A stretch of DNA of 64,000 nt from an uncultured Bacilli bacterium (GTDB lineage Bacteria > Bacillota_I > Bacilli_A > RF39 > UBA660): the NCBI GenBank assembly GCA_934167485.1, contig CAKPKL010000003.1:7153-71152 (forward strand). Reading direction: 5' to 3'. Under the pieces are notes generated by a model. That model searched no databases. It saw only the letters and a list, made by a program, of their open reading frames with translations, and was not told the DNA's origin. Position 1 is the first letter of the stretch. Every line of letters begins with the position of its first letter. Positions 7,655-62,136 of this stretch are shown here, piece by piece. The position numbers were made by a program, and so were the translations under genes.

Positions 7655-9545
7655 TTAAATATCTAAACTATAAGGACTATTTGCAGTTCCCTCTCCTCCG
7701 GTTATATAGACCATAGATGATAGAGTTATAACTGGACGAGACGCAAGCCACGTGGCCACAGCGCCGCTGCCGCCACTAATCCCGCTGCCGTACACATGCG
7801 ACACATTGACAGACGAAGAAATCCATCTGTTTGTATACCAGAAATTAATATTTAAATCATTTCCTGTATACATTTCTCCCCAACTTGGTAAGACTACATT
7901 AAGTGTCACTTCTCCATCTTCATCTAATATACTATAATCTCTTGCGTATCCACTCTGTTTTAATTTAACTGTTGTTGGTATTATCATACTCTTTGCTTTA
8001 TCACTATACCAATTATAAAAACTGTTTGTTGCATTATTTAAATAGTATGGTAAGCTCTCTCCTGTGTTAACGATGAATTCTCCTTCACCTTTCATTAAAT
8101 CAAACCTGTTATGATTTGTACATCCTCCTGTATAATAATTATCACCATTAATGTTTTCTTCTCCATATTTCTTTTCTGGTGAATACAAACAACTCGTTGA
8201 TCCTTCGCCTGAGTCTATACTATAAAATGGTATGTATATTCCAGATCTTATTGCTACTGTATCTGGTAAGTTTCTTAATACATCTGCTCTTTCTACTTTT
8301 ATACTTCCATCACTATTTATCTCTACTATTCTATATCTTACTTTTGATGTGCTTGTTTTATTACTTACTTTATTTATATATGTTTCATTTATTTCTGTTA
8401 CATATGGATTACTTGATTCATCTAAATATACATAATCTCCTACTTTTCCTAAGTTAAGCTTTGTGTTCTTATTTAAGTTTCTTTCACTACTTAATATATA
8501 TGGATTAGCTCTTGTTCCTTTGCCACTTTTTACAAGTACATTATCTTTTATGCTTATTACTGGTCTTACTCCTAATCCATATGTATTTGTACTATACTCT
8601 ATTGATAATTTACTTGAATTCTCATAATAAGTTTGCCAGTTGTTATTTGATGATGTATTGTTTGGTGTTATAAGCCAAGATAATTCATCTTCATCTAGAT
8701 ATGATCCTCCATCTTGAATTGTCATTTCATCTAAAGCATATATATAATCTTCATATGTTAATAGTCCTACTTTTTCTGTTATTTTATTTGTACAAGATGT
8801 CATTTTTGTATATGAGTCTGGGGTTACATCTACTGGATCTATACAAAACTCTGTTTCTTTAATCAAGTCTGTTCTTTCTAATCTACTATAGAAATATTCA
8901 TTTAACCATTTCTTTACCCAAGATGAGTTCCAATCGTTTGTTTCTCCATAAGCAATAGAAGTTAATGATACAGGTGATACTAACTTAATTGTATTATTTG
9001 TATCATTTGTCTCCATTACTTCCCATAGTTGACCTGAGTATAGTACATAGTTATTCATAATTGTTTGTTCATCTTTTGTTCCATACACTTTATTTACTGT
9101 ATTTCCATTTACTACTACATTTTTCTTTATATGTTTTGTATCACTTTCTATTAAACTCTTTAATGTTTTATAATCGCCTATAGAATCTCTTCCCTCATAA
9201 TAAAATATATAATCTGTATCATTCATATATACAAATACTTTTTTGTTTTCATCTTCATCTGTATTTTGTATATATCCTTTACTTTTTAATTCTCCTATTG
9301 TTATTTCACTTGGAGCTGATTCATTTTTTGTTTCATATTCTGATACTATGTAAAGTTTAGCTGCTCTTTCTATATTCTCTATACTTCTTTCTTTTGCCGC
9401 TGCTTTACTATCTGTTATTATATCTAACACTATTGGTGTAGCTATTAAAACTATAATTGCTAGTATTACTATAACAGCTAAAAGTTCTATTAGGGTAAAT
9501 CCTTTACTATAGGTTACCCCCCCCCCAGGCGTTATTTTTTCTCAT
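7655..9545 (-). CDS. large type IV pilin-like protein, phase-variable; currently frame-disrupted by a G10 tract just after the start codon
   Basis: The annotated ORF (7655..9430) lacks a signal and begins at a GTG. The same frame continues upstream through KGFTLIELLAVIVILAIIVLIATP, a class III pilin signal, to G10 (9517-9526 on +). ATG at 9545 with RBS aaGGtaGGGa. In frame only if nG is 9 or 12. Confidence 0.6.
9517..9526 (-). repeat. homopolymeric poly-G tract (10 nt) in the pilin leader codons; candidate slipped-strand phase-variation site
   Basis: Ten consecutive C on + (G on the coding strand) in a ~25% GC context. Flank aaaaataacgcct[G10]ta is shared with the two other tracts. Confidence 0.8.
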
Positions 9546-23582: not shown

Positions 23583-23601
23583 TAACCTATATTTTTTATT
23601 A

Positions 23602-29600: not shown

Positions 29601-29643
29601 ATTATCCTCCTTCTTTATTTTACTTTTGTAAAGATACCAAAAA

Positions 29644-29688
29644 ACACAAAGAAACCTAGAGTTTTATTCTCTAGATCTTTGTGTTTAT
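29644..29688 (-). terminator. intrinsic terminator / attenuator hairpin inside the 5' leader of pilin-like gene 28221..29600
   Basis: Minus strand cacaaagatctagag-aataaaa-ctctaggtttctttgtg then ttttt. It lies between the poly-G upstream ORF and the pilin RBS. Confidence 0.5.
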
Positions 29689-29720
29689 GTATTCTAATAG
29701 TATTATAGTATAATTAGATA

Positions 29721-29730
29721 CCCCCCCCCC
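29721..29730 (-). repeat. homopolymeric poly-G tract (10 nt) inside an upstream ORF (start 29770) ahead of the pilin-like gene
   Basis: C10 on +. Flank aaaaataatgcct[G10]tatcta. Upstream ORF begins atgaagatatcattaagaaaaaacaataaaaataatgcctgg (MKISLRKNNKNNAWGGG). Confidence 0.8.
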
Positions 29731-29796
29731 AGGCATTATTTTTATTGTTTTTTCTTAATGATATCTTCATATACTACCACTACCTTTACTATATTT

Positions 29797-29825
29797 AGTA
29801 TATATTTTTATACACTATTTGTCAA
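29797..29825 (-). promoter_or_regulatory. consensus promoter TTGACA-17-TATACT for the poly-G leader and pilin transcript
   Basis: Minus strand ttgacaaatagtgtataaaaatatatact, then RBS aaaGGtaGtGG and upstream-ORF ATG at 29770. Confidence 0.55.
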
Positions 29826-29835: not shown

Positions 29836-29880
29836 AAAAAAATATAGGTTATTGATTAATCTATATTTTATATAAAAGCT
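29836..29880 (+). repeat. third copy (C) of the ~35-bp pilin-promoter element, in inverted orientation and with a degenerate -10
   Basis: + strand aaaaaaatataggttattgattaatctatatttt matches copies A and B, then diverges (atataaaagc instead of tttagtataat). Points toward the 3' end of ORF 29879..30418. Confidence 0.55.
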
Positions 29881-39682: not shown

Positions 39683-39765
39683 CCTCAAATCATAAATCTA
39701 TACCCATATTATCATAGAGAAAATAATATTTTATAAATGGTATTTTTCTATGTCTATTAAGTTTA

Positions 39766-40754: not shown

Positions 40755-41616
40755 AATAAATAAATTCCTTATACCTATTTATATCGTTTATAGAATCTAA
40801 TGTATTCTTAACAAAAAATTTTATTATATCTTTTAAAGTGTAATTCTTTCCAAGATATTTATATGTATTGTTAAATATGTTTACTATATCTAATTTATAA
40901 TTGGTATCTAATTCTCTATCTTGATTATAATATACAAAATTATCAATAATTACTCTAAATGGTTCCATTAAATCACAAGTTAGATTAAATTCATTAAATT
41001 CATTTTTATGGTGTATTCCAAGTTGTGTTAAATAACCATTACTTACAACTTCTTTATTAACTGTAGAAAGCAAAATAGCATAACCATAATTAAGAGCTGC
41101 GTTAATATTGTCTTGATGATTTCTAACAAAGTGCATTCCATATAATGCGTTAAAATATACTTTTGCAGAATGACCTTCTCTATTAGTTTTATCGCCTGGC
41201 ACTACATCATCAACATAACTTAAAACAAGTTTATATTTATCTGAGTTAATTTTTTTCAAAAGACTAGCTTGATTAAGTATTTTATTTTTTACAATTTTTT
41301 CCCATAACAAATCTTTTTTAGACACTTTCCAAGATATTTGCTCTTTTATTTTCTTACTAGTATTGTGTCGTGAATAATAAGAAGATAGTTCTCCAAATGG
41401 ATTATGTTTATCATCACAAAAAATAATATTTATTTTATTATCTGACAATTCTTTTAAGAGATAAGCAGAAATAGATACAGATATTGAATCTACAATTATT
41501 GTATCTATTTCTGATAAATGAATATATTTTTCATCATTGTCTTGTTTTACAACTAAAAACCTATTCTTATAATTTATCTTTGATTGTCTAGTAATTACAA
41601 CTGTTCTAAAACTCAT
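40744..41616 (-). CDS. cas1: Cas1 integrase
   Basis: MSFRTVVITRQSKINYKNRFLVVKQ...HLSEIDTII...IIFCDDKHNP...EGHSAKVYFN...MEPFR match type II-A Cas1. Confidence 0.9.
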   Translation of the reverse strand: MSFRTVVITRQSKINYKNRFLVVKQDNDEKYIHLSEIDTIIVDSISVSISAYLLKELSDNKINIIFCDDKHNPFGELSSYYSRHNTSKKIKEQISWKVSKKDLLWEKIVKNKILNQASLLKKINSDKYKLVLSYVDDVVPGDKTNREGHSAKVYFNALYGMHFVRNHQDNINAALNYGYAILLSTVNKEVVSNGYLTQLGIHHKNEFNEFNLTCDLMEPFRVIIDNFVYYNQDRELDTNYKLDIVNIFNNTYKYLGKNYTLKDIIKFFVKNTLDSINDINRYKEFIYYEG

Positions 41617-44600: not shown

Positions 44601-45670
44601 TTCTTAGTAGCTTTCTTACTTCTAAACATTTCATTATATTTTTTTCTATTATAATTGAACATTTCCTTCAATAATTTTAAATCCCTTTGATGTTCTTCAT
44701 ATTTATCTGTCATTAAATAAGAAATACTTATATAATTACGTCCTTTAAATATTTTTTTTAGAAAAACCATATCATATAATTCTTTTAATAGCTCTAAAGT
44801 ACTTAACTCATCACCTAATAATTTTTCTAAGTCATCATATTTATCATCAAAATCTGTACCACTAAAACTAATAGATATTTTATTTTCACTATCAATTGCA
44901 AATAAATCTTTAACAACAAATTTACCACCTGTTATTAATTTTCCAAATTCACTAGCAAATTTTTTATTTTCTGAAATATCATATAATTCTTTTTTTAAAT
45001 TTACTTTAATATCATTTTTAGATTTATCCATTATTATATTTTTTAATTCTTCATAATCAATTTGATTTAAAATATCTTCAGAAATATTAAGCCTGCTAAC
45101 AGTTTCTGATAGTTCTCTAAATACATCTTTTAATTTACCAACTAAATTTAAATCATTTGCATTGAATTTACCATTATATAAAAAGTTTCCTCTGTATTTA
45201 ATAATATGATGTATTGCTAAATATACTAATCTTATATCTTCTTTAGAATCATCATCAATTAATCTTTTTCTCAAATGATAAATAGTTTTATATTTTTCAT
45301 TATATTCTCTTATCTTAGCTTTTTCATCAGTGCTAAGAAAAATTGTTTTATTTATACTATCCTTTTCATGATATTTAGATTCTTGTAATTTTTGAAAAAA
45401 ATTAGGATCTACTTTATTTATTTCACCTTTAAATTCTTCTTGAAGTAATCTAATTCTCTCTCGTCTTCTAGCATATCTACGTCTAGTACTACGAAATCCT
45501 CTTCTTCCTTCAGCGGTATTTGCAGTATCAAAAAGTCTTACTCCCCATAAAGCTTTTCTGTTTTTTCCTGTACCTTTTCTAATTATTTTTTGAGTTTTAT
45601 CTTCTACTACTGCCCAACCTACAGAAGTAGTTCCTATATCTAAACCTATATTATAATTTTTCTTTTCCAT
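41606..45670 (-). CDS. cas9: Cas9 endonuclease (type II-A); start taken at MEKKNYNIGLD with RBS ttGGAGGtttgtcaaATG
   Basis: RuvC-I IGLDIGTTSVGWAVV, HNH VDHILPQSLIKDDSIDNKAL, arginine-rich bridge helix RRRYARRRERIRLL. About 1354 aa. Confidence 0.9.
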   Translation of the reverse strand: MEKKNYNIGLDIGTTSVGWAVVEDKTQKIIRKGTGKNRKALWGVRLFDTANTAEGRRGFRSTRRRYARRRERIRLLQEEFKGEINKVDPNFFQKLQESKYHEKDSINKTIFLSTDEKAKIREYNEKYKTIYHLRKRLIDDDSKEDIRLVYLAIHHIIKYRGNFLYNGKFNANDLNLVGKLKDVFRELSETVSRLNISEDILNQIDYEELKNIIMDKSKNDIKVNLKKELYDISENKKFASEFGKLITGGKFVVKDLFAIDSENKISISFSGTDFDDKYDDLEKLLGDELSTLELLKELYDMVFLKKIFKGRNYISISYLMTDKYEEHQRDLKLLKEMFNYNRKKYNEMFRSKKATKKDKEYICIYEQYIHNKITVDEFKKKLDSYFPELFDKITNVSLIEKYNQNKLRLENSEFLPRITNSENGKYPYQINMNELIKIIENQGKYYPFLLDKVNDEYKITKLLEFKIPYYIGPLNKKSKFAWLERKDNVKITPYNFDEVIDKETTAEKFIKRMTSKCTYLLKEDALANNSILYCKFKVLNELKQIKINGNKIDNDIQNKILTDLFMKTRGSITDKKFKEYIHSSKDFEMFENDINVTGYSADGKFANNMQSYIDFYGDDGIFVGTSYNEEAADEIIEWITIFDDKDILEKKVRNKYVELNDSQINKIINKKYSGWGELSRKLLKDIYYKDEKSGINKSIIDLMYETEENFIQIINNDKYKFQDKINEENNVSGNIKLNYSLVENLATSPAIKRGIYQSLKVVDEIIKIMGYKPKTVMIEMAREDGKKERRDDRKKYLEKIYAEAKKNVDEYNGNLLKIEKELKQQEKIDSVKLFLYFIQEGKCLYSGKSINIEDLKTNSVEVDHILPQSLIKDDSIDNKALVYRDYNQNKKDKLVLPENYRTTNMIRWWEHLKKINLMSAKKFYRLTRKAYKDEDIQGFINRQLVETRQITKHVANIIKNLYDTKIVYLKANLSHNYRERYELYKFRDLNDYHHAFDAYLTAVLGEYKEKFMKKNLNYDMVKEINAYLIKMKDYKKLNYGFVINSLDNELSDVVNKITGNLVDQKTGEVLFEASEFNRNIENTYYRNDILISKKTEIKTGELYNQTKNKKGQSGVPLKGNMPTKLYGSYTSLNPSYAIVVRFTKNGKESQKMIGIPIYIDKVKNELLKEQYIKNLLSLEDNDNYKIISKPIPFFTKLDWNEQICSLVGATDKVEVCNSLELSINKSDMIKYKNTLNRLLNKKKNAIDDVSYEQNIKSLIEAIYNKIATTYKLYNNLAEQLRQIIDDNINCTLENKEMLVIQLLGLLRCNSINANLKFLDKNYSMAFGKKCNRIIEHAIVYNQSVTGIKETTYEF

Positions 45671-45699
45671 TTGACAAACCTCCAATTTTTTGGTATTAT

Positions 45700-45801
45700 T
45701 AAATTGTCTTAATACCATTTAAGATGACATAGAGAGTTAAAATAAAGCTTTTAAGCCTAAATGCTCACTAAGTGTTCGAACGGTTAGCCGTTCTTTTTTT
45801 T
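45700..45801 (+). ncRNA. tracrRNA candidate, divergent from cas9
   Basis: Anti-repeat cttaataccatttaagatgacatag pairs with crRNA repeat 5'-GUUUUAGAACUAUGUCAUCUUAAAUGGUAUU. Followed by agaGUUAAAAUAAagc (S. pyogenes-like nexus) and hairpin gaacgg-ttag-ccgttc + T8 terminator. Confidence 0.6.
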
Positions 45802-45924: not shown

Positions 45925-47157
45925 TTAAATTTTCATCTTTCTTATTTTATTTACTTCAATAAGTAAAAATAACATCGCTAAAAAGCACACACAACTAAGA
46001 ACTAAAACTATAGATAGATATTTATCTTTTTCTTTCATTAATTTATCAATCATATAAGTATTATATCTTTGTACTGAATTTTCTTCTACATCATACAAAT
46101 AATAACCCTCATGACCTGTCATAGTATTAGTCGCATATATTAAATAATAATCATCTAAATCTTCTACTTTATATGCGGTTACTTCTTCTCCATTTATTTT
46201 AATTTTTTTCTTAGTATAGGAACTTTTCTTATCTTCATGAATATATAAATTCATTCTATTAAACTCATACTCTTTATATATACTGTATTTATCAGTTTTT
46301 GAATCATATGCATACAAACCTATATCCCCATCACTATTTTTTAATCCAACTAAAGTTATCTTTGTAACTTCATTATATAAAGTAGGAATATCGAAATCTG
46401 ATATCTTTACAGTATCTTCTTTATAACCATCTTTTGTACCAATCAATTCTCTTTTTTTGATGACTCTATACTTCTTACCATTTATTTCTACCTCAATAGG
46501 ATCTTTTTCTTCCATATTAGCTGTAATCTTATATGTCTTTTCATTTCCATTTTGAGCTATTACAACAATATTTATAGTATTAACGCCTTCACTTACTTGT
46601 ACCTCTCCTGCACCTTTTATAGATGCACTATTATGTTCAGCTACTGCTTTAACATTAATTTTTTCAGTTCCAGGAATAAGCTCTATAGTATATTCCAATG
46701 TATCCTTATTAAAAGCTGTGTTTAATTCATATCCATCAACACTTAAGCTTTTTAAATTATTATTACTACTATATGTTTTATTTATTTCAATTGGTTTTGT
46801 TGTACTCTTTTTTATAACATTAATTGTAATAGAACGACTTCCAGTAAATTCATTACCATCGCCATCTGAAACCTCTGTAGCATTTACAGTTATGGTAGCA
46901 CTCCCTACTTGATTAGCTGTAAAATATAAATCGACTGATGAATTTTCTAACCATTTTGAATCACCACCAGCAAGTACATTACCATTTGATGACGTTATAT
47001 CAAATCTACCAGTTAATCCACTTGCTTCAACTGTAACTTTAACACTATTTCCTACATAAACAGTAGTATTTGCATTTATACTAAAAGCATCTACTTTATT
47101 TACTCCTATAAAAATAGTTAACAAAAGTAAAAATAATATATATTTTATTTTTTTCAC
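45925..47157 (-). CDS. cell-surface protein with signal peptide, Ig/cadherin-like beta-sandwich repeats and C-terminal TM anchor
   Basis: MKKIKYILFLLLLTIFIGVNKVDA signal. LKSLSVDGYELNTAFNKDTLEYTI cadherin-like beta-sandwich motif. C-terminal hydrophobic segment then KIRKMKI. Confidence 0.5.
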   Translation of the reverse strand: MKKIKYILFLLLLTIFIGVNKVDAFSINANTTVYVGNSVKVTVEASGLTGRFDITSSNGNVLAGGDSKWLENSSVDLYFTANQVGSATITVNATEVSDGDGNEFTGSRSITINVIKKSTTKPIEINKTYSSNNNLKSLSVDGYELNTAFNKDTLEYTIELIPGTEKINVKAVAEHNSASIKGAGEVQVSEGVNTINIVVIAQNGNEKTYKITANMEEKDPIEVEINGKKYRVIKKRELIGTKDGYKEDTVKISDFDIPTLYNEVTKITLVGLKNSDGDIGLYAYDSKTDKYSIYKEYEFNRMNLYIHEDKKSSYTKKKIKINGEEVTAYKVEDLDDYYLIYATNTMTGHEGYYLYDVEENSVQRYNTYMIDKLMKEKDKYLSIVLVLSCVCFLAMLFLLIEVNKIRKMKI

Positions 47158-47167
47158 AATTTACCTC

Positions 47168-49249
47168 CTATTGATTGATTGTTCCAGCACCCATAATCAT
47201 ATTTTTTATTTTTACATAATCTGTTGCTTTTACTTGACCATTATGATCAACATCAGCAGCTTCTAAATATGCACCTGACAATGTAATACTTCCCATTATT
47301 TTATTTTTAATTAAAACATAATCTGTTGCTTTTATCTTTCCATCGCCATTTACATCACCATAAATAACTATTTCATACTCTTTAGTTTCTGAACCAATTG
47401 TAATAATTACTTTATCACCGGTTGCGACAACACCAGATTGTTTATCTTGATTTAATTTATTTCTCAAACTTACAACTGCATTTGAATTAGCATTTGTAAT
47501 TCTTGTTCTAATAGCTGATATATCACTTCCTACATTAAATCCACTTAAATATTTATCATTATTTTTAATACCAGCATTATTTAAAGTGGTTGTAACATCT
47601 ATTGGATCATCTATCTTTGTACCTGTTAATATAAAGTTTATTTTATAATATTTAATATCTCCATTTTGAGCTGTTACTTTAAGAGTTTTAGATGTGTTTT
47701 CATTTATATCAAATGTTCCTAATCCACTAATTGTTGCAGATCCATTTACTGGTTTTGCTTCTATTTTAACCTTAGGAGTATTAATATCTACATAATAATT
47801 ATATTCTTCAATATCACCATCAAAATCCGCAACTTTCTTATCATTAATAACTATTTCACTTAAATAATTATTTGGCCATCCACTTCTTACACTTGCATCT
47901 GGAAGTGCGGTAGATGCAGGCATATCACGATATACAGGAATAAAGAAAACATAACTTAAATCAAGTAATCCATTTTCATAATAAGCTCTATATGTAGAAT
48001 GTCCCTCTGTTGATGGAGCTGATATATCTTGCATATATTGATGAGTGTAATTAGCATGATTTGGAGTCTTTCCGCTTCTTACTAAATAGTTATAAACTAC
48101 ATCAAACTTTTTAAAATACCCTGTATCTTGGCCATAAGATAGATAATTCTTTTTAATCCATTTTGCTCCACCTACTATAGCCCTATATTGAGTATTCCAT
48201 GGCTTTAATACATCTTCTTCTGTACCTGCAGCAAAATCAAGTCCTCTATACACAGGGTTTGATCCACTAGTAGCACCTATATTATAAAAGTTATACATAC
48301 CATTATATTGTCCATTAATTGCAGTACCAGGAGTAGCTCCATTTGAAACTTCTCCTTTAGATAAAGACGCTAAATATATAGGACATACACCACTTTGTTT
48401 ACCAGCCTCTAAAAATGTATCAGTAAAACTTGCTAAATAATCTGAACCAAATATACTTTTAATACTTTCTTTCATTTTATCATCACTGGAACTTGTGTCA
48501 TATGCCAAAGACTTAAATTGAAAAATATACATATCTCTTAGAAAATTTCTAGGATCCAAATAATAAGATATTGTTTGAGTGTTTATTCTATACCAAGGAT
48601 CACTACCTGTTACATCATCAAAAGCAATATAATAATCATCCTTGTAATTAAATGAACTAGGTCCTACTTCTAGATAAGCATAATTATTTGACATACTTCT
48701 TCTAAGTAAACTTCTAGAACCATACCACTCATTTTGTACCACTTCTTCAAAAGTTAATTCAGTATCTATAGCAACGAAATTCCAGTTAGGATGAGCACTT
48801 TTTAAGAAAGCTAAATTATCCCAATAACTCTCAGGAAAACCAGCATTTTTAAATTGATTTTTTAAATAATCATTAAGAAGTGAATCCTTCTTTAAATTAG
48901 CATTACAAAAATATCCTTCATAAGTCTTTCCTACACTATCGAAATAAAATGTAGCCTTAACATAGTAATCACTACATAAATTAGTATCTTTGGTTGCTAC
49001 CTGTTCTCCATTTTCTATTATAGTTACTACATCACCAGTATCAAGAGCATACAATCCACTCGATACAGAATTTAAATTTTTATCTTTATAAAAACAAGAT
49101 GAACCATTATAAACTTTTCCATTTATTGGGCATTTAGTATTAGCCGGATTCATAACAGTTGCTTTATAATCAGCTTGTACATGATCTATAAATAAAAGAG
49201 ATGATATAACAAAAGTAACAATAAATAAATATTTATATGCCATTTTCAT
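47168..49249 (-). CDS. secreted glycoside/peptidoglycan-hydrolase-like protein with C-terminal dockerin-type repeats
   Basis: Signal peptide. Central domain (YLDPRNF...). C-terminal paired Ca-binding repeats DVNGDGKIKATDYVLIKN...DVDHNGQVKATDYVKIKN typical of dockerin type I. Confidence 0.5.
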   Translation of the reverse strand: MKMAYKYLFIVTFVISSLLFIDHVQADYKATVMNPANTKCPINGKVYNGSSCFYKDKNLNSVSSGLYALDTGDVVTIIENGEQVATKDTNLCSDYYVKATFYFDSVGKTYEGYFCNANLKKDSLLNDYLKNQFKNAGFPESYWDNLAFLKSAHPNWNFVAIDTELTFEEVVQNEWYGSRSLLRRSMSNNYAYLEVGPSSFNYKDDYYIAFDDVTGSDPWYRINTQTISYYLDPRNFLRDMYIFQFKSLAYDTSSSDDKMKESIKSIFGSDYLASFTDTFLEAGKQSGVCPIYLASLSKGEVSNGATPGTAINGQYNGMYNFYNIGATSGSNPVYRGLDFAAGTEEDVLKPWNTQYRAIVGGAKWIKKNYLSYGQDTGYFKKFDVVYNYLVRSGKTPNHANYTHQYMQDISAPSTEGHSTYRAYYENGLLDLSYVFFIPVYRDMPASTALPDASVRSGWPNNYLSEIVINDKKVADFDGDIEEYNYYVDINTPKVKIEAKPVNGSATISGLGTFDINENTSKTLKVTAQNGDIKYYKINFILTGTKIDDPIDVTTTLNNAGIKNNDKYLSGFNVGSDISAIRTRITNANSNAVVSLRNKLNQDKQSGVVATGDKVIITIGSETKEYEIVIYGDVNGDGKIKATDYVLIKNKIMGSITLSGAYLEAADVDHNGQVKATDYVKIKNMIMGAGTINQ

Positions 49250-50556: not shown

Positions 50557-51828
50557 TTAATTACCTATACAATATGGGTATTTAACACCTTTTATAACTA
50601 CTTTTTTAATAACATTTAAATCATCTATAGTGCCTTTTGCTTTTACTAATAAATAATTACCAGTATGACCTATTATATAACCTTCTTTATAAACCTCAGG
50701 TAAAAACTCTACTTCTTTTCCTATAAATTTATTAAAATATTCTTCTTCTAATTTTTTACTTAATATAAGTAATCTCTTTACCCTTTCTTTCTTAATAGAA
50801 TTATCTATATGATTTGGCATATCCTCCGCTTTAGTTCCCTTTCTAAGTGAAAAAGGAAAAACATGTACTTTTGAAAATCCTATTTTTTTTATCGTATTTA
50901 ATGTTTCTAAAAAATCCTCTTCTTCCTCACCAGGAAACCCTACAATTACATCAGTTGTAATAGATATATTAGGTCTAATACTTCTTATTTCTTTTATTTT
51001 ATTTATAAAATATTCTTTATCATACTTTCTATTCATTAACTTCAATATCTTATCGCAACCACTTTGAATTGGAATATGCATGTGATCTACAAGAATTTTG
51101 CTTTTAGATAAAGTATCCATAAAATCATCATCTAACTCCGTTATCTCTATACTAGAAATTCTAAGTCTTTTAAGTCCTTTAATATTTTCTATTTCCCTTA
51201 ATAATTTAGAAAAAGTATAATTATTTAAATCACTACCATAATGTCCAGTATGTATACCAGTAAGAACAATCTCTTTATGACCATCATTTACTAAATTAGT
51301 TATTTCACTAATAACTACCTTAGGATCTTTACTACGAACTTTACCCCTTGAATATGGAATAATACAATAACTACAATAGTTCTCACAACCATCTTCTATC
51401 TTTACATATGCTCTAGTTTTATTAAAATTATTTAAGCACATATCTTCAAATCCTTTTTCCATAATATTCTCTACATCAATAATTGGTTTTCTATTCTTCT
51501 TATATTTTTCTATATAATCTACTATCTTACTTTTACCACTATTACCAAGTACTATTGATACATTTAAACTCTCTAATAATTTATAATTTACCTGAGTCAT
51601 ACATCCTACAGCTATTACAATACTATTTTTATTGTTATTTATAACATGTCTTATAGTCTTCAATGATTTATTATCACTTGTATTAGTTACTGTACAAGTA
51701 TTTATAATATAAATATCTGAATCATTTTCATTACCCTCTATATATCCATGATTTAATAACTTATCTCGCATTACATTAGATTCATAACTATTTACTTTAC
51801 AACCCAATGTATAAATATAAAACTTCAT
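50557..51828 (-). CDS. radical-SAM methylthiotransferase (MtaB/MiaB family)
   Basis: MKFYIYTLGCKVNSYES (UPF0004 N-domain). CENYCSYCIIP radical-SAM Cys triad. C-terminal TRAM-like domain. Confidence 0.8.
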   Translation of the reverse strand: MKFYIYTLGCKVNSYESNVMRDKLLNHGYIEGNENDSDIYIINTCTVTNTSDNKSLKTIRHVINNNKNSIVIAVGCMTQVNYKLLESLNVSIVLGNSGKSKIVDYIEKYKKNRKPIIDVENIMEKGFEDMCLNNFNKTRAYVKIEDGCENYCSYCIIPYSRGKVRSKDPKVVISEITNLVNDGHKEIVLTGIHTGHYGSDLNNYTFSKLLREIENIKGLKRLRISSIEITELDDDFMDTLSKSKILVDHMHIPIQSGCDKILKLMNRKYDKEYFINKIKEIRSIRPNISITTDVIVGFPGEEEEDFLETLNTIKKIGFSKVHVFPFSLRKGTKAEDMPNHIDNSIKKERVKRLLILSKKLEEEYFNKFIGKEVEFLPEVYKEGYIIGHTGNYLLVKAKGTIDDLNVIKKVVIKGVKYPYCIGN

Positions 51829-51882
51829 AACATCACCTACTCAATTATACAATAAAAAAGATATTATTTAAATATCTTTCAA

Positions 51883-53343
51883 TCATTTTAAATAATTAAT
51901 AGTGGCACTAGTAAATGGAGTATTACTGTCACCTACAGTTATTTTATCAAATTCTTCTTTAGTACCATTATAGTTCACTGTTGTAAGTCCTGTATTTTTA
52001 AACGCTTTAGCATCTATCGCTTTGACATTTGTAGAAAGAGTTATTTCTTTTAGTGTTGAAACTGCTATAAATAGGCTATATGGTATACGTTCTACTTCTT
52101 TACCCACTATTACAGAACTTAATCCAGTCCCTTTAAATACTGATCTTGAAGATGTTCCTTCTTGTGTTACCTTCCATCCAGGTTCACAATTTTTAGCATT
52201 ATAATATACTTTTTTTAATTTGTCACATTTCCAGAAAACATTCCATCCCATTGATTTAATATTCTCTGGGATTACTATTTCTTCAAAATTTAATGTTCCA
52301 AAATAATTATAAAATAAATAATGTGGTAGACTTTCTACGTTTTCCCCTATTACAACTTTCTCTATTGGATTCTTCCAAAATATTGAATATACAATACCTT
52401 TTTCTGTATCTCGATAACTAGAAGAATCAACAGATATTGCATTATAGTATAATTCTTTTAATTTAAAATTACATCCTACAGCAGATCTTCCTAAATATAT
52501 AACATTCTCTGGTATTGTTACACTTCTAAGTCCTCCATAACTTATTGATAAATTTCCCATATAAGTAAGTGTTTGAGGTAATATTACTCTTTCTAATGCA
52601 TACAATCCTTCAAATGCACAGTTATCTATTTTCTCTATTCCACTAGAAATTATTATCGTTTTTATCGTTTCATTGAAATTTATAAGATCACTTGCATCTT
52701 CAAGTGTATCAAACGTACCTAAAACAGTATAAACCTTATGTTCTTCACTTATCTTACTTGTATCTACATTTGGTACTCCTACTGCATATACCTCATAATC
52801 ATTTACTTTTCCTGGTACCATAAGCACCGTATCATTACCTGTATACTCTATTAACTGTATTTTGCCTGTTTCTAATACTATATATTTCCAATCTCCTACT
52901 TTGTATACTGTTGTTCCATTTTCTTCTATTGTTTCTTCTGTACCTGTTATACTGTACTCTATATCCTCATTTTCTTTTAATTTATATTTTTTATTATTTG
53001 CATATATATACTTTACTCCATCTAATGTAAGTTTATATGATTCCACTCCATTATCTCCAAATACTATAAAATCATCATATCCTGTTGGTGTTTTTCCTTT
53101 TATACCTATTCCTATTTCTTTTAACTCATCTAGTGAATAACTATTGTTTGCAACATCACCATTCATTTCTTTTTTTGATATTGTTAATTCAGCTGCTCTT
53201 ACATAATTATTTATACTTTGTTCATTACTTGAATTTTTACTATCCTTTATTATATCTAATACTATTGGAGTAGCTATAAGTGCGATTATTGCGAGTATTA
53301 CAATTACCGCTAAAAGCTCTATTAATGTAAATCCTTTTTTCAT
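51883..53343 (-). CDS. type IV pilin-like protein fused to a leucine-rich-repeat (BspA-type LRR) adhesin-like domain; could be extended to 53426 as a leader fusion if the G tract becomes 12
   Basis: MKKGFTLIELLAVIVILAIIALIATPIVLDII start (annotated ORF begins 21 nt upstream at MNRKRKN). C-terminal 250 aa show repeating ...I.E.VISIG..AF..C..L..V.. units typical of TpLRR/BspA repeats. Confidence 0.7.
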   Translation of the reverse strand: MKKGFTLIELLAVIVILAIIALIATPIVLDIIKDSKNSSNEQSINNYVRAAELTISKKEMNGDVANNSYSLDELKEIGIGIKGKTPTGYDDFIVFGDNGVESYKLTLDGVKYIYANNKKYKLKENEDIEYSITGTEETIEENGTTVYKVGDWKYIVLETGKIQLIEYTGNDTVLMVPGKVNDYEVYAVGVPNVDTSKISEEHKVYTVLGTFDTLEDASDLINFNETIKTIIISSGIEKIDNCAFEGLYALERVILPQTLTYMGNLSISYGGLRSVTIPENVIYLGRSAVGCNFKLKELYYNAISVDSSSYRDTEKGIVYSIFWKNPIEKVVIGENVESLPHYLFYNYFGTLNFEEIVIPENIKSMGWNVFWKCDKLKKVYYNAKNCEPGWKVTQEGTSSRSVFKGTGLSSVIVGKEVERIPYSLFIAVSTLKEITLSTNVKAIDAKAFKNTGLTTVNYNGTKEEFDKITVGDSNTPFTSATINYLK

Positions 53344-53396
53344 ATTTTTCCTCTTTCTATTCATACTTCCGAGTAAGGTTATTGTATAACTAGATA

Positions 53397-53407
53397 CCCC
53401 CCCCCCC
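53397..53407 (-). repeat. homopolymeric poly-G tract (11 nt) in a leader ORF (ATG 53426) upstream of the pilin-LRR gene
   Basis: C11 on +. Flank aaaaataacacct[G11]tatcta. ATG AAT AAA AAT AAC ACC TGG-G11 (MNKNNTWGGG). Confidence 0.8.
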
Positions 53408-53460
53408 AGGTGTTATTTTTATTCATATTTTTTACCTACTTTCTTATACTAACTATCCTA

Positions 53461-53489
53461 ATTATATAAAAAGATTGAACTATTGTCAA
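53461..53489 (-). promoter_or_regulatory. consensus promoter TTGACA-17-TATAAT for the leader and pilin-LRR transcript
   Basis: Minus strand ttgacaatagttcaatctttttatataat, then RBS aaGtAGGt and ATG at 53426. Confidence 0.55.
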
Positions 53490-53501
53490 TCTAAAAAAAT
53501 A

Positions 53502-54668
53502 TTACCTAACCTTAATTTTTTCATTTTTTGTCTCTATATGAATTCTTTGAATAATTCCCAATGATGCGATTAAAGATAGTGTAAAACTTCCACCATAAGA
53601 TAAAAATGGTAATGGTACTCCAGTTAGAGGAATAATCCCAAAAAGTCCACCTAAATTTATAAAAATATGTAAGAATATGTAAGTAGCAACCCCTATACAT
53701 ATATATTTATTACTTATCTTTTTTGTTTTCATAGATAATTTTAATATTCTATATAATATTATTATGTATGCGATAAATATTAAACTACATATTAGTACTC
53801 CATTTTCTTCTGCGATGATTGCAAAAACCATATCAGTATGAGGTTCAGGTATATATGAATATTTTTGTGTACTTTTACCAAGCCCAACACCAGTAAGACC
53901 CCCATTATTTATAGCTATATATGCATTACATACCTGATATCCAGTTGATTCATATTTCGAACATGGATTAAAAAAATCAAATCTAGAAAGTTGAGCTTTT
54001 GATAAAACATATCCTGCAAAATTCAACATGGACAAAAGTCCTATTACACCTATAACTCCAACTATTAAGGTTGATTTAAATTTTTCCCCACTAGATATAG
54101 GACTTGAAAAGAATAAAACTACAAATATACCTAAAAGTATAATAGCTGTTCCTAAATCCTTTTGTAAAAAAACTATCACTGGAAAAATAACACCAAAACC
54201 AATTATTTTCCAAATTATCATATCATGTTTTTCTTTCATATCAGATAATTTTTTTGAATATTTTTCAAACAATAAGCTTAGTGTAAGTATTATTGTAGGT
54301 TTAGCAAATTCACTAGGTTGGACTTTCATAAATTTTAAATCAATCCAGTTTTGAGCACCTCTAGTGGAAACACCTTTTAATACTAAATACAAATTCATAC
54401 TTAGTACTACTACATATACAATAAGCATCCAATATTTATAATCTTTTGTTTCTACTTTAAATATTAATATTAAAAAAGCAATTAAACTTATAAATAATAT
54501 TACTGAATGTTTAAAAAAATAATAAAATAAATTAGCATCCCTATTAACTACAGCTTCTCTGCTAGATGCAGTAACTATATTTAAAGTACCGAATATAATT
54601 AATATAAGTGTTGTAAATAATAATATTTTATCCATATCAGCAAAAGTTTTCTTTATTTTTTTAAACAT
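53502..54668 (-). CDS. FtsW/RodA/SpoVE-family peptidoglycan glycosyltransferase (SEDS)
   Basis: 10-TM protein. C-terminal GGSFTLSLIASLGIIQRI and NGGLTGVGLGKS motifs typical of SEDS proteins. Confidence 0.8.
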   Translation of the reverse strand: MFKKIKKTFADMDKILLFTTLILIIFGTLNIVTASSREAVVNRDANLFYYFFKHSVILFISLIAFLILIFKVETKDYKYWMLIVYVVVLSMNLYLVLKGVSTRGAQNWIDLKFMKVQPSEFAKPTIILTLSLLFEKYSKKLSDMKEKHDMIIWKIIGFGVIFPVIVFLQKDLGTAIILLGIFVVLFFSSPISSGEKFKSTLIVGVIGVIGLLSMLNFAGYVLSKAQLSRFDFFNPCSKYESTGYQVCNAYIAINNGGLTGVGLGKSTQKYSYIPEPHTDMVFAIIAEENGVLICSLIFIAYIIILYRILKLSMKTKKISNKYICIGVATYIFLHIFINLGGLFGIIPLTGVPLPFLSYGGSFTLSLIASLGIIQRIHIETKNEKIKVR

Positions 54669-54796: not shown

Positions 54797-54964
54797 ATGT
54801 ATTACTATGGTGGATATCAAGGATACGGTGGATATCCTTATGGTGGATGTGGAAATACCTGTGGCGGAGGTTACGGTACAGGATATGGAGCAGCTATCAT
54901 ATTAGTTTTATTTATTCTTTTAGTTATTGTAATTGGTGCTCGTGCTTTTGATGGCAATAGATAA
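54797..54964 (+). CDS. small Gly/Tyr-rich membrane peptide, YjcZ-family-like sporulation protein (55 aa)
   Basis: MYYYGGYQGYGGYPYGGCGNTCGGGYGTGYGAAIILVLFILLVIVIGARAFDGNR. RBS ttGGAGGgttattATG. Not in the ORF track (under 60 aa). Confidence 0.5.
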   Translation: MYYYGGYQGYGGYPYGGCGNTCGGGYGTGYGAAIILVLFILLVIVIGARAFDGNR

Positions 54965-57780: not shown

Positions 57781-58701
57781 ATGAAAAAACTATTTAATAT
57801 ACTTATATTTTTTATTATTATCTTTTTGATACTTAAAAACTCTATAGAAATAATAGAAAGTATTAAGTTTTCCTTTAATATATGTGCTAATAATTTATTT
57901 CCATGCCTTATACCATTTATGATAATATCAAATATTTTAATAAATTATAATTTTGTTCAAGATATTAGTGATATTTTAAGTAATATAACAACTAAAATAT
58001 TTAAAGTAAATAAAAGTTGTGCTTTCGCACTTATTATGAGTATGATAAGTGGTACACCTAGTAATAGTAAATATTTAAAAGACTTATTTAATAATGGATT
58101 AATTAATGAATATGATATAAGTAAATGTTTATGCTTTTGTCATTTTACTAATCCTATTTTTATATTAGGAACTATTGGTTATAGTTTTCTTGGTAATAAA
58201 AGAATTGGACTTATAATTTTAATTAGTCATTATTTAGGTAACTTTATATCAGGTATATTAAATAGAAATAAAAAATATAAAATTATAAATTTAGAACACA
58301 AATCTAATCTAAATAAAAAAGTATTTATAAATGTGTTAAATGAATCTATTAAGTCTACTATAGATACTTTATTACTTATAATGGGTATTATAACTTCTTG
58401 TCTTATTATTACTGGTTTAATTAATAGTATTTTTAAAATAAATAACGATTATAAATTTATCTTTGGAATACTTGAAATTACTCAAGGACTAAAATATTTA
58501 TCTTTATCAAATATTAATATAACTCTTAAAATAGTTATTTCTACTTTTTTTATTACTTTTGGAGGATTCTGTATACATCTACAAATATTTAGTATATTAG
58601 ATAATAATAAAATAAGGTATTTACCTTATTTTATAAATAGAATTTTTACTGGTATTTTATCTTCTTTTATATCTTTAATTTTATTTAAGTTGTTCCTTTA
58701 A
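57781..58701 (+). CDS. integral membrane protein (possibly YlbJ/nucleoside-recognition-like sporulation membrane protein)
   Basis: 306 aa, multi-TM, weak family resemblance only. Confidence 0.35.
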   Translation: MKKLFNILIFFIIIFLILKNSIEIIESIKFSFNICANNLFPCLIPFMIISNILINYNFVQDISDILSNITTKIFKVNKSCAFALIMSMISGTPSNSKYLKDLFNNGLINEYDISKCLCFCHFTNPIFILGTIGYSFLGNKRIGLIILISHYLGNFISGILNRNKKYKIINLEHKSNLNKKVFINVLNESIKSTIDTLLLIMGIITSCLIITGLINSIFKINNDYKFIFGILEITQGLKYLSLSNINITLKIVISTFFITFGGFCIHLQIFSILDNNKIRYLPYFINRIFTGILSSFISLILFKLFL

Positions 58702-59179
58702 TAAAATAAACTAAATTAATTCCAAAATCTTCATTAGGATAAAGTTTATTTTTTATAGGTATTTTTATTACCATAAATCTATCATTAGATGTATTTATAT
58801 CTAAATATTCATCATATATTGAAGGGTTTGATACTTTAGATCCTTCTTTTAATGAATAAGTATAATTTCCAAATTTTATTTTTTTCTCTTCTACTAATAA
58901 CTTTATAACCTCTCCATTAACAAAAGTAAAATTATAACATAATAACCCTTCAGAACAAGCTTCATGATCTACCATGTTATCCCTATTAATTTTTGAATTT
59001 AATGCATTACTTAAATTACCTTGATTTATAAGTAAATTAGTTTTTATATTATTTTTAGTATAAGTATTTTTTAAAATGACAACAATATTAATAAGTAGTA
59101 TTATAATTACACAAGATAAAGCACATGTTGTAACGAGTTCTATTAAAGTAAAACCTCTTTTATTCATTTTATTCACCAA
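58685..59179 (-). CDS. minor pilin / pseudopilin-like protein
   Basis: MNKRGFTLIELVTT class III signal followed by a hydrophobic helix. 164 aa. 11-nt overlap with the upstream pilin gene. Confidence 0.55.
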   Translation of the reverse strand: MVNKMNKRGFTLIELVTTCALSCVIIILLINIVVILKNTYTKNNIKTNLLINQGNLSNALNSKINRDNMVDHEACSEGLLCYNFTFVNGEVIKLLVEEKKIKFGNYTYSLKEGSKVSNPSIYDEYLDINTSNDRFMVIKIPIKNKLYPNEDFGINLVYFIKGTT

Positions 59180-59648
59180 ACCTTACAGTAGCATAAACAG
59201 AATTTTCAAATTTAGCAATCAATCTATATTTCTGTGTACCTTCTTTTTTTATTTTTGATATAAAGTTTTTAAATTCATCATCATAAGTAACTATTTTATC
59301 TTTATCAAATTTATTTGTAGCAATTATTATTTCACTAATACCTTCTAACTCTAATAGTTTCTGGCAACGTATTTCACTTGTAAACATATCACAACTCTTT
59401 AAATTTACATAATTAGTACTTGTTACATTATTATTTATAAAATCTAATGCTTTTGAATCATCTAAAATATAATTTTTTACTGTATTTAAAGCATACATAG
59501 CCTCAACTGTATTATATTTATAGTTTTCATTATATCCATTACTTAAATTTATAAATTGTATTGTTGTAAATAGGAGAATACCTGCTACAAATGTAGTTAC
59601 AACTAGTGTCTCTGCCAACATAAAACCTTTATTCTTATTTTTTTTCAT
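59169..59648 (-). CDS. minor pilin / pseudopilin-like protein
   Basis: MKKNKNKGFMLAETLVVTTFVAGILLF N-terminus (G-F-x-x-x-E). 159 aa. Confidence 0.55.
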   Translation of the reverse strand: MKKNKNKGFMLAETLVVTTFVAGILLFTTIQFINLSNGYNENYKYNTVEAMYALNTVKNYILDDSKALDFINNNVTSTNYVNLKSCDMFTSEIRCQKLLELEGISEIIIATNKFDKDKIVTYDDEFKNFISKIKKEGTQKYRLIAKFENSVYATVRFGE

Positions 59649-59743
59649 AAATATCCCTACTCTATCTTGAAATTATTACAACATTATTATATAATATATT
59701 TAGGATAAAATCTAGTCCTGAAAGTTATAAAAAGGGTGATAAA

Positions 59744-61336
59744 ATGTTAAAAACTTTTGATTTTGATAAAACTCCAGTAGTTGAAATAGTAAATGAAATA
59801 TTAGTAGATGCATCAAAAAGAGGTGCTTCAGATATTCACTTTGATCCACATGAGGATGCACTTAAAACTCGTATAAGAGTTGATGGTGAATTGATGGATT
59901 ATACAGAAATACCTAATTCTATCGCGAAAAACTTAGTAACGCGTATTAAAATTATTTCTGGTATGAATATTACTGAATCAAGATTACCTCAAGATGGTGC
60001 GATTAAGGCTAACTTAGAAGGTATTGATTTGGATCTTCGTGTGTCTGCTCTACCGACTAATAAAGGCGAGAAAATAGTTATTCGTATTCTTGATTATTCT
60101 CTAAGTTTAGCAGGACTTGAAAGTTTAGGATTCAGTGAAGAAAATTATAAAAAAGTATTAAAATTAATTTCTGTACCTAATGGTATACTTCTTGTAACTG
60201 GTGCGACTGGTTCAGGTAAATCTACTACTATTTATTCAATATTACAAAGACTAAATAAGGAAAATACAAATATTATATCTGTAGAGGACCCTATAGAAAT
60301 GGATATTGAGGGTGTTAACCAAATACAAACTAATAGTGAAATTGGACTTGACTTTGCTACAGTACTTAGATCTATTTTAAGACAAGACCCAAATATCATT
60401 ATGATAGGAGAAATTCGTGATACTGAAACAGCAAAAATTGCAGTTCGTGCTTCAATTACAGGACACTTAGTATTATCTACAATACATACAAACGACTCAT
60501 TAAATACAATTGAACGTTTACTTGATATGGAAGTTGAAAGATACTTACTTGCGAGTGCACTTACTGGTATCATATCTCAAAAATTAGCTAGAAAATTATG
60601 TCCACATTGTAGAAAGCTTAGACCCACAAATGATTATGAAAAAAATATAATAAAGAAAGTTCTTGGAAAAGAAGTTAATGAAATTTACACAGCAGTTGGT
60701 TGTGATAAATGTAAAAACGGTTACAATGGTCGTATCGCAATACACGAAGTACTTATGATTGATCAAAATATTAAGGATGCAATAAGTTCTAATGTTAAAA
60801 AAGAAAAACTAAGACATTTGGTTTATAATGGAGATGTTATTTCCCTATTACAAGATGGTATGATTAAAGTTCTAGATGGACTTACAACGCTTGAAGAACT
60901 ATTAAAGATTATTGAACTTGATGATGATGAAACATTACATTCAACAGGATTAGAAAATGCTATTGAAGTAAATGAATTAACTAAGGAAGGAAATAAACAA
61001 CAACCTGAAGAACAAAAACAAGAAATTCCAAAACCACAGACAGTTGTCGAAAAAACAATTAAAGAGATTCCAAAACAAGTTGCTGTAGAAAGACCAGTTC
61101 AAGTTGAAAATAAAAGTAATAATCAAGTTAATGTTGTACCTCCTAGACCTCAAATTATTAAAGAAGAACCTAAACCTGTACAACAAGTAAGACCTAATAT
61201 AAATAATGAACAAGTAATACAAAAAGAGGTTAAACCAATTGAAAAACCTATTGGGCAGCCAGAGCCTTCTAAACCACAGCCAAAACCAGAAGTAAAAAAA
61301 TCTATATTTGGTTCAAAAATAAGCCTATTCAAATAG
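59744..61336 (+). CDS. type IV pilus assembly ATPase (PilB/GspE/ComGA family) with a C-terminal Pro/Lys/Gln-rich extension
   Basis: Walker A GATGSGKSTT, Asp box, His box, tetracysteine CPHC...C..C. About 130 aa low-complexity tail (PKPQTVVEKTIKEIPKQVAVERPVQ...). Confidence 0.85.
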   Translation: MLKTFDFDKTPVVEIVNEILVDASKRGASDIHFDPHEDALKTRIRVDGELMDYTEIPNSIAKNLVTRIKIISGMNITESRLPQDGAIKANLEGIDLDLRVSALPTNKGEKIVIRILDYSLSLAGLESLGFSEENYKKVLKLISVPNGILLVTGATGSGKSTTIYSILQRLNKENTNIISVEDPIEMDIEGVNQIQTNSEIGLDFATVLRSILRQDPNIIMIGEIRDTETAKIAVRASITGHLVLSTIHTNDSLNTIERLLDMEVERYLLASALTGIISQKLARKLCPHCRKLRPTNDYEKNIIKKVLGKEVNEIYTAVGCDKCKNGYNGRIAIHEVLMIDQNIKDAISSNVKKEKLRHLVYNGDVISLLQDGMIKVLDGLTTLEELLKIIELDDDETLHSTGLENAIEVNELTKEGNKQQPEEQKQEIPKPQTVVEKTIKEIPKQVAVERPVQVENKSNNQVNVVPPRPQIIKEEPKPVQQVRPNINNEQVIQKEVKPIEKPIGQPEPSKPQPKPEVKKSIFGSKISLFK

Positions 61337-61364
61337 ACTTATTTTTTTATAAAAAAAACAATAT

Positions 61365-62132
61365 TTAAAATATTGTTAATAAATCTATTATCTTATTAAA
61401 ATCTACCTTTAATAGTACTATTACAATAGCTGATACAGCAAGAAATGGACCAAAAGGTATTTCATGATTCTTCTTTGATTTTAATACTAATAGTGAGATT
61501 GGTAAACCTATTATTGCAGCTAAAAATACAGATACAATTGACATTGGAAATCCTAGTACAAAGCCATAGATTGCCATAAGTTTAATGTCTCCCCCACCCA
61601 TCGATTCTTTTTTGAATAAAAAATCTCCAAATAATTTTAGTAGCAACATAAATATAAAAGCTCCTACACCTGCTAGAAGTGACATTCCAACAACTTCTAT
61701 GCTACTCATAAAAAATTTGATTATTATTAATATTCCTAAAGATACTATAAGTACACTATCTGGTATTATCATAGTTTGATAATCACTTATTATTATTATA
61801 AGTAGCATTGAAATAAATACTATATAAAATAAGCATTCTAAAGAATAACCAAATACTACAAAGCACAAAGCAAATAGTATTCCACTTGTAAATTCAAATA
61901 TTGGATAAAACCAAGAAATTTTTTCACCACAATTTTTACATTTACCACCTAAAAATAAAAAAGAAAGTACTGGTATTAATTCCATTGGTTTGAGTTTATG
62001 ATTACATTTTGGACAATGTGAACTAGGATATAGAATAGATTCTCCCTTAGGTATTCTATATCCTACTACATTGTAAAATGAACCAAAGACTGTGCCAATT
62101 ATAAAGAACATTATAATTAAAGCATAATACAT
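61365..62132 (-). CDS. prepilin peptidase (A24 family; PilD/ComC-like)
   Basis: MYYALIIMFFIIGTVFGSFYNVVGYRIP. Cys pairs CPKCNH...CKNCGE. Catalytic Asp context IIISDYQTMIIPD and GGGDIKLMA. Confidence 0.85.
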   Translation of the reverse strand: MYYALIIMFFIIGTVFGSFYNVVGYRIPKGESILYPSSHCPKCNHKLKPMELIPVLSFLFLGGKCKNCGEKISWFYPIFEFTSGILFALCFVVFGYSLECLFYIVFISMLLIIIISDYQTMIIPDSVLIVSLGILIIIKFFMSSIEVVGMSLLAGVGAFIFMLLLKLFGDFLFKKESMGGGDIKLMAIYGFVLGFPMSIVSVFLAAIIGLPISLLVLKSKKNHEIPFGPFLAVSAIVIVLLKVDFNKIIDLLTIF

Positions 62133-62136
62133 AAAA

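Follow-up and report, generated by a model that had tools for sequence, protein, structure and literature searches.

Phase variation driven by repeats is familiar from a few Gram-negative pathogens but has rarely been documented in Gram-positive gut commensals. In Neisseria pilC, a poly-G tract acts as a frameshift switch in the signal-peptide region of a pilus-associated protein; Campylobacter jejuni and other low-GC, host-adapted bacteria carry poly-G/C contingency loci, mostly inside coding sequence; and in Clostridioides difficile cwpV a recombinase-driven DNA inversion determines whether an intrinsic terminator forms in the 5' leader. A different principle operates at pil1 of Streptococcus gallolyticus, where changes in the length of a leader peptide, driven by a simple sequence repeat (SSR), relieve a premature terminator through ribosome occupancy (Danne et al. 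2014, PMC3894217). The repeat consists of 22 copies of GCAGA, the terminator has a predicted energy of -18.7 kcal/mol, the genes encode sortase pili, and a mutant from which the terminator was deleted is locked ON (PMC3894217). Our literature search found this one Streptococcus case of leader-peptide or attenuator phase variation and no other. Here we analyse a poly-G tract in a short leader open reading frame (ORF) ahead of a type IV pilin-like gene in an uncultured Bacilli bacterium (RF39, UBA660), using a stretch of 64,000 nucleotides (nt) from contig CAKPKL010000003.1 (positions 7,153 to 71,152), hereafter the window, to which all coordinates refer. The length of this tract (n) changes the leader ORF, which encodes 11 amino acids (aa), encodes 15 aa or is fused to the gene, while the pilin keeps an independent, strong Shine-Dalgarno (SD) sequence and ATG.

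A poly-G leader of variable length at locus 3

The window has a GC content of 25% and contains only three G/C runs of at least 6 nt: C10 at 9517-9526, C10 at 29721-29730 and C11 at 53397-53407, which we call loci 1, 2 and 3. All three follow AAAAATAAYRCCT, and each stands 5' of a pilin gene. Matches to G9 number 7 in the window against 0.02 expected, and the 23-nt context AAAAATAAYRCCT-G10 occurs 3 times against 0.00 expected.

At locus 3 (Table 1), the promoter matches the consensus at 12 of 12 positions, the sole such match in 51700-53700. The leader ORF opens with ATG AAT AAA AAT AAC ACC T and runs directly into the G11 tract, so that a slippage-prone repeat is contained in a short upstream ORF that has an SD and an ATG of its own. 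Beyond the tract come TATCTAGTTATACAATAACCTTACTCGGAAGT, a second ATG (53364-53362, separated from the tract by 32 nt), AATAGAAAGAGGAAAAAT, and a third ATG (53343-53341) that opens ATG AAA AAA GGA TTT ACA, or MKKG/FTLIELL, where the slash marks the predicted prepilin cleavage site. With 11 Gs the leader encodes a 15-aa peptide, MNKNNTWGGGYLVIQ, ending at TAA 53381-53379; with 10 it encodes the 11-aa peptide MNKNNTWGGGI; and with 9 it reads VSSYTITLLGSMNRKRKNMKKG/FTLIELL straight into the pilin, as it would with 12. Every sequence statement about this locus in a preliminary description of the window (TTGACA-17-TATAAT promoter, ribosome-binding site, leader ATG, G11 and TAA) held when rechecked, and the translated frames agree with its claim that the leader fuses only at G9 or, by arithmetic, G12.

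The same description had placed the pilin start at ATG 53364. The true start is almost certainly ATG 53343, since 53364 lacks an SD, reads ATA in a diverged copy (contig L026), and public gene calls are of 485 or 486 aa beginning at MKKGFT. Duplex energies computed against a generic Bacilli anti-SD were -9.1 kcal/mol for ATG 53343 and -2.6 kcal/mol for ATG 53364, compared with -10.7 for the leader, a median of -6.0 for the genes of the window and -1.6 for random positions. Gene callers begin at MKKGFT in all 15 full-length members of the protein cluster except for one fused call from a G9 contig; two further members are fragments. Because public calls begin there, an exact look-up of the 493-aa product that the earlier start implies gave no match. 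We also considered an RNA structure that masks the pilin SD at some tract lengths and rejected it: leader folds predicted for G9 to G12 have low stability (about -11.5 kcal/mol), and the pilin SD is unpaired in the minimum-free-energy fold at each of these lengths. No terminator-like site was found in 51700-53700, hence none between the tract and the pilin gene.

To compare tract lengths across strains, as the preliminary description had proposed, we retrieved public contigs by searching for exact copies of three proteins, the 486-aa pilin and the FtsW and MtaB-like proteins that flank it. The organism is uncultured and known only from metagenomes, and the contigs derive from human-gut samples, from the Hadza and others. 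Relatives of its Obg at 89% identity carry the label "Bacilli bacterium". Thirteen copies of a single locus 3 allele were available (12 metagenome contigs and the window), in which the assembly-consensus length was G9 once (L001, about 27x coverage, where the gene is called as a fused 512-aa product), G10 five times (L002, L003, L010, L050 and L061) and G11 seven times (L004-L009 and the window). Over 530 nt of flanking sequence, these contigs depart from the window at 3 positions in total. The contigs represent 12 independent samples and three assembly pipelines, and include contigs of 83 to 138 kb. Across all copies of the leader described below, tract lengths spread from 8 to 11. A homopolymer this improbable and a length that differs while the flanks stay constant are two features of an SSR contingency locus, and we take the G tract of locus 3 to be a genuine slipped-strand hypermutable repeat rather than a product of chance.

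Public assemblies often break at or just past the poly-G tracts, or in the conserved 5' region of the pilin genes (contig ends of L007, L011, L018, L021, L022, L027 and L045). This pattern is consistent with breaks in the assembly graph induced by repeats or heterogeneity, and surveys based on metagenome-assembled genomes (MAGs) will undercount such loci.

A family of leader cassettes in three forms

The preliminary description had noted a common ATG-KNN[AT]W-poly-G context at the three loci of the window. We recovered it as ATG-xKNN[AT]W followed by poly-G, and the long or fused frame always corresponds to n = 0 mod 3. By these shared sequences, the tract is assigned to a family of leader-peptide cassettes that precede type IV pilin-like surface proteins. 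We distinguish three forms, A, B and C.

Type A is represented by locus 2, five loci of MAG CAVEJT01, and contigs L031, L034 and L039/40. Its layout is a promoter, an SD, M(M)KISLRKxNKNN[TA]W-Gn, TATCTAGTTATAC and further leader sequence, a hairpin, 6 to 8 U, a strong SD and the gene. The hairpin and U-run are present in all seven distinct copies, with energies of -15.8 to -21.2 kcal/mol against about -6 +/- 2.5 for shuffled sequences. When n = 0 mod 3, the stop codon of the leader falls within the 5' arm of the hairpin, at +47 (L031, despite a 1-nt indel, has it in the loop, at +53), while the other two frames stop upstream of the hairpin, at +4 and at +15 or +24. A ribosome translating the n = 0 mod 3 frame would block the hairpin, allowing transcription to run on. 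The rule given in the preliminary description, that the gene is ON when n = 0 mod 3, thus plausibly holds at locus 2 by antitermination. Transcription-translation coupling may be weak in Bacilli, a consideration that bears on type A and not on locus 3.

In type C (locus 1, L021, L022, L035, L044, L048 and L049), the one possible prepilin leader, MRKNNAWGG(G)VTYSKG/FTLIELL, has the tract within it, and no in-frame start occurs past the tract. Judged by this arrangement, type C is a classical in-leader frameshift switch, and at locus 1 the n = 0 mod 3 rule should hold mechanistically.

Type B comprises locus 3 and L026/L027. When locus 3 was aligned with locus 2, a single gap of about 70 nt covered the whole terminator, and the internal SD region of type B lined up with the SD region of the type A pilin. 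The distance from tract to gene ATG is correspondingly 53 nt in type B versus 120 nt in type A, or 67 nt shorter. Homology of the type A and B leader peptides over 15 codons, as a comparison by eye suggested, is not borne out by the alignment, in which homology extends to about 25 nt past the tract and resumes at the pilin SD region. Type B is best described from this alignment as a type A cassette minus its terminator, with the pilin SD and ATG 53343 kept. Both the involvement of a terminator at locus 2 and the status of locus 3 as the version without it had escaped the preliminary description.

Alleles that lack the cassette or carry a decayed one are also present. Contigs L051-L054 cover the same place among the FtsW, pilin-LRR and MtaB genes and lack an 83-nt module; there the upstream ATG, served by the same promoter and SD, leads directly into MKKGFT. 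The module is bounded by two SD-like repeats, AGAAAG(T)AGG, and its boundaries are accurate within a few nt. A decayed type B cassette occupies the position of locus 1 in L041-43 and L047, where the tract is G4, the leader ATG is gone, and an intact pilin of 617 to 623 aa has the internal ATG as its sole start. In L038, locus 2 is without a cassette. In L034 (3515-4764, compared with window 22456-23600), a type A cassette and a different pilin replace the cassette-free paralog at 22464-23531, between flanks that are 98.7% identical. This replacement suggests that recombination exchanges cassettes and the 5' ends of pilin genes. The presence or form of the cassette is polymorphic at 4 of the 4 pilin loci examined.

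We consider it possible, and a little short of an even prospect, that the cassette is a self-contained, portable unit of phase variation (promoter, SD, poly-G leader ORF and terminator) that is moved by recombination between the 5' ends of surface genes. It would have evolved by deletions from A, an attenuation switch, through B, a fusable and leaky intermediate, to C, an in-leader translational switch, with the n = 0 mod 3 rule kept in all three. If so, it would be the first case both of a leader-peptide attenuator driven by a homopolymer and of phase variation through repeats among the type IV pilin-like adhesins of an uncultured lineage of gut Bacilli.

A 23-nt element, TATAGGTTATTGATTAATCTATA, is found three times as an exact match in the window (0.01 expected), at 9595-9617 (-), 23569-23591 (-) and 29843-29865 (+). 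It carries the -35 hexamer TTGATT of pilin promoters and is inverted relative to the gene at locus 2. The cassette-free L038 has a 1-nt variant in forward orientation, and the element is inverted in the cassette-bearing window and in L039/40. It may serve as an operator, or represent a very short inverted segment flanked by 7-nt inverted repeats.

The cassette appears to be lineage-restricted, since a scan of GTDB representatives found it in only one genome and it was absent within 20 kb around obg in related species (Obg 93% and 85% identical). In the related species with 93% identity, a G7 run (L055 11309-11315; L056 1843-1849) stands directly upstream of the DUF7666 gene beside obg, in an unrelated context, and may be another small contingency tract. 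Pilin genes are not the only targets, because a type A cassette with G8 precedes a non-pilin operon in L013 (CAVEJT010000005.1, 1836-4111) that encodes a 717-aa Q/N-rich membrane protein and then similar proteins. The "Bacteroidaceae" label of MAG CAVEJT01, to which this copy belongs, is doubtful because the MAG is closely related to the window, which is of Gram-positive type (FemAB, a sporulation gene); it is probably a mislabel.

A phage origin of the cassette was set aside, as its motif was absent from the viral contigs searched. A riboswitch or T-box was likewise rejected: Rfam models matched nothing in the whole window at the gathering threshold, and around loci 2 and 3 at E <= 1 only a meaningless snoRNA match (E = 0.45) appeared. 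The ON-frame leader peptides, used as a profile query against 5.8 billion proteins, gave no match at E <= 1; they are too short for such a search, and fused forms probably lie unseen within 90% clusters whose representatives start at MKKGFT. Neither Rfam nor the literature searched yielded a description of a poly-G leader cassette.

Table 1. Features of the poly-G loci and associated pilus genes in the window
Feature	Positions	Strand	Remarks
Locus 3, sigma-70-type promoter	53461..53489	-	TTGACA 53489-53484, 17-nt spacer, TATAAT 53466-53461
Locus 3, leader SD AGAAAGTAGGT	53434..53444	-	anti-SD duplex -10.7 kcal/mol
Locus 3, leader ORF in the G11 state, MNKNNTWGGGYLVIQ	53379..53426	-	ATG 53426-53424, stop TAA 53381-53379
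Locus 3, conserved 5' flank AAAAATAACACCT	53408..53420	-	common to all cassette copies as AAAAATAAYRCCT
Locus 3, hypermutable G11 tract (C11 on + strand)	53397..53407	-	length 9/10/11 in 12 public contigs
Locus 3, conserved post-tract box TATCTAGTTATAC	53384..53396	-	also in type A cassettes
Locus 3, in-frame ATG (MNRKRKN...)	53362..53364	-	pilin start in the preliminary description; SD duplex -2.6 kcal/mol; ATA in L026
Locus 3, pilin's own SD AGAAAGAGGA	53349..53358	-	6 nt 5' of ATG 53343; -9.1 kcal/mol
Locus 3, 83-nt module present or absent between alleles	53352..53434	-	from alignment with module-free L053 (same FtsW-pilin-MtaB locus); L051-L054
Pilin-LRR gene, 486 aa from MKKG/FTLIELL	51883..53343	-	PF07963 3.8e-08, PF13306 3.8e-29
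Locus 2 (type A)	29639..29825	-	promoter 29825-29797, leader ATG 29770, G10 29730-29721
Locus 2, terminator hairpin and U-run	~29686-29639	-	hairpin -20.2 kcal/mol; followed by pilin with own SD and ATG 29600
Locus 1 (type C)	9517..9545	-	leader ATG 9545, G10 9517-9526, out of frame at G10
Prepilin peptidase (Peptidase_A24)	61365..62132	-	8 kb from locus 3
T2SSE ATPase	59744-61336	+	adjoins prepilin peptidase
T2SSF platform protein	62137-63897	-	adjoins prepilin peptidase

Tract length and expression of the pilin-LRR gene

The effects on expression that we propose for locus 3 are all inferred. What the sequences show is its anatomy, the length polymorphism, the homology to types A and C, the missing terminator, a strong and accessible internal SD, and the existence of module-free and decayed alleles. 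On balance we lean modestly towards a reading in which the pilin-LRR protein is produced irrespective of tract length, and the tract sets only whether ribosomes from the leader add a fused prepilin; it would be at most a dimmer, or else a young remnant headed for decay, rather than an ON/OFF switch. With the terminator lost, transcription from the consensus promoter would no longer be gated, and the pilin-LRR would be translated from its own ATG 53343 whatever the tract length. Ribosomes that start at the leader would yield only an 11- or 15-aa peptide when n = 1 or 2 mod 3. When n = 0 mod 3, they would continue into the gene and provide a second supply of prepilin, with a leader of 31 aa (G9) or 32 aa (G12), which the prepilin peptidase would trim at the same G/F site. 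The reasoning that the pilin is made at every length draws on the strong, unpaired internal SD, the lack of a terminator, and the Streptococcus mutant in which terminator deletion locks expression ON.

Under this reading locus 3 would be a leaky or relaxed derivative of the cassette, at which a strict rule of ON only at n = 0 mod 3 is unlikely. That rule stands as a description of the long or fused frame at every locus, and extends to expression at locus 1 and plausibly at locus 2, but not to locus 3, where the gene has a strong start of its own.

The alternative that survives best is a strict translational phase switch, in which synthesis of the pilin-LRR depends wholly on its fusion to the leader at n = 0 mod 3 and the internal start is unused in vivo. 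The fusion frame is present and open in all type B variants, the tract does vary in length, the same rule is unavoidable at locus 1, and the G9 contig L001, with coverage of about 27x, demonstrates that bacteria in the fused state can live in a host. We nevertheless consider a strict switch unlikely here, because the pilin keeps a strong, accessible SD and ATG 53343 downstream of the tract, with neither a terminator nor an occluding structure between tract and gene. Moreover, MKKGFT is the N-terminus in the module-free alleles, from the upstream ATG, and the internal ATG serves as the sole start in decayed alleles whose genes are intact.

An inverse logic can also be envisaged, whereby the pilin's own start serves at n = 1 or 2 mod 3, and at n = 0 mod 3 ribosomes from the leader override it to make a prepilin bearing a leader of 31 or 32 aa; its poor processing or assembly would lower function. 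Leaders of 31 to 32 aa are longer than usual for type IV pilins, and the fused state is the rarest (1 of 13 copies at locus 3, 1 of 7 in type C and 0 of 10 in type A). However, the type C prepilin must use the same MxKNNxWGG(G) leader start, so this sequence is compatible with processing, and the rarity of n = 9 or 12 could equally follow from a mutational optimum at 10 to 11 or from selection for OFF at the strict loci. We judge the inverse logic improbable.

That the length differences are Illumina or assembly errors around an inert leftover of fixed length is scarcely credible: homopolymers are error-prone, some contigs have only about 3x coverage (L005, L008) and contigs often break near tracts, but three length classes recur across the 12 samples and three pipelines, among them the 27x G9 contig and long contigs of 83 to 138 kb, the same spread of 8 to 11 appears at all cassette copies, the flanks are essentially invariant, and chance would never be expected to produce so long a G run at 25% GC.

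Several observations weigh against our preference for constitutive synthesis with an optional fused product. The tract is still 9 to 11 Gs in every copy of locus 3, and the second type B copy, in a diverged lineage (L026/L027), also has G9; a tract that stays this long could be under maintenance. The fusion frame is open in 3 of 3 type B variants, the decayed one included, for which our own estimate of the chance probability, about 0.1 over some 19 codons at this composition, is not negligible. Type B copies at locus 3 are nearly identical, which marks them as young and makes selection for or against an open fusion frame unmeasurable. With only 1 copy out of 13 in the fused state, selection against expression may be at work, in which case the tract would matter. 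The tract lengths are consensus values of assemblies rather than read counts, and SD strength was scored against an anti-SD that is not taken from this organism's own 16S rRNA. Slippage of RNA polymerase or of the ribosome on G11 could in addition blur the tract states.

The product of the gene has an N-terminal methylation motif followed by BspA-type leucine-rich repeats (LRRs), with LRR_5 in three stretches. Its N-terminus, MKKG/FTLIELLAVIVILAIIA, has the short basic leader, G/F(T/S)LxE motif and hydrophobic helix of a class III signal. A database search with the protein at E <= 1e-10 recovers about 1800 proteins, the majority of those listed having the same N_methyl and LRR_5 architecture. 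The window encodes six prepilin-type genes, with almost identical N-termini in four. The Peptidase_A24 enzyme encoded nearby would cleave either form of the leader at G/F. It lies within a cluster for type IV pilus or pseudopilus machinery (58685-63897) that also includes two minor pilin-like ORFs.

Other genes surround the locus. Downstream of it (45925-49249) are a dockerin-containing protein of 693 aa and a 410-aa protein with a cadherin-like domain, a pair that may point to a surface apparatus resembling a cellulosome. A 55-aa ORF (54797-54964, +), rich in glycine and tyrosine and hydrophobic in a C-terminal segment, is called as a gene in public contigs and has no Pfam hit on record. A type II CRISPR-Cas system occupies 39384-45718, with Cas9 at 41606-45718 (-), three small unannotated ORFs downstream of it (39766-41616), and a short array of 66-nt period (39384-39683).

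Relation to described phase-variable systems

The interest of these findings lies mostly in the cassette family rather than in the leaky copy at locus 3. Several compact poly-G cassettes stand ahead of pilin-anchored adhesins in an uncultured bacterium of the human gut, and metagenomes reveal their variation in length as well as their gain and loss, offering a direct, sequence-based marker for the state of a commensal's surface antigens in vivo. The attenuator, fusion and in-leader copies form a natural series for the study of switch evolution. Locus 3 also carries a caution, namely that, before the frame of a tract is taken to mean ON or OFF, the sequence downstream should be checked for a start.

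Compared with S. gallolyticus pil1, type A (locus 2, L011-L015, L031, L034 and L039/40) matches the layout point for point in its sequence features, with hairpins of -16 to -21 kcal/mol. The cassette differs in using a G homopolymer, in serving type IV pilin-like genes, in occurring in multiple copies and in being swapped among paralogs. Locus 3 departs further. It has no intrinsic terminator, and with no hairpin there is nothing for the leader stop to fall within or beyond, whereas type A has both features; it would be the natural equivalent of the locked-ON mutant, with the difference that its leader can fuse to the gene.

Locus 1 and the other type C copies are switches of the same kind as Neisseria pilC, in that the protein's sole usable start codon and its body are separated by the tract. 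Locus 3 differs in having a second SD and ATG past the tract, so that out-of-frame lengths need not abolish the protein, and its host is a low-GC Gram-positive gut commensal. The contingency loci of Campylobacter resemble those described here in their G/C homopolymers of 8 to 13 nt, AT-rich genome, confinement to surface-structure genes and polymorphic lengths; here, however, the tracts lie in a conserved, portable leader cassette that has a promoter, an SD and, in type A, a terminator. With cwpV the cassette shares the placement of a phase-variable element between the promoter and a surface-protein ORF, although cwpV involves neither repeat slippage nor a leader peptide. Since locus 3 lacks both the terminator that characterizes pil1 and the sole start upstream of the tract that characterizes pilC, we place it, on its sequence features, in neither family and regard it as a derived variant.

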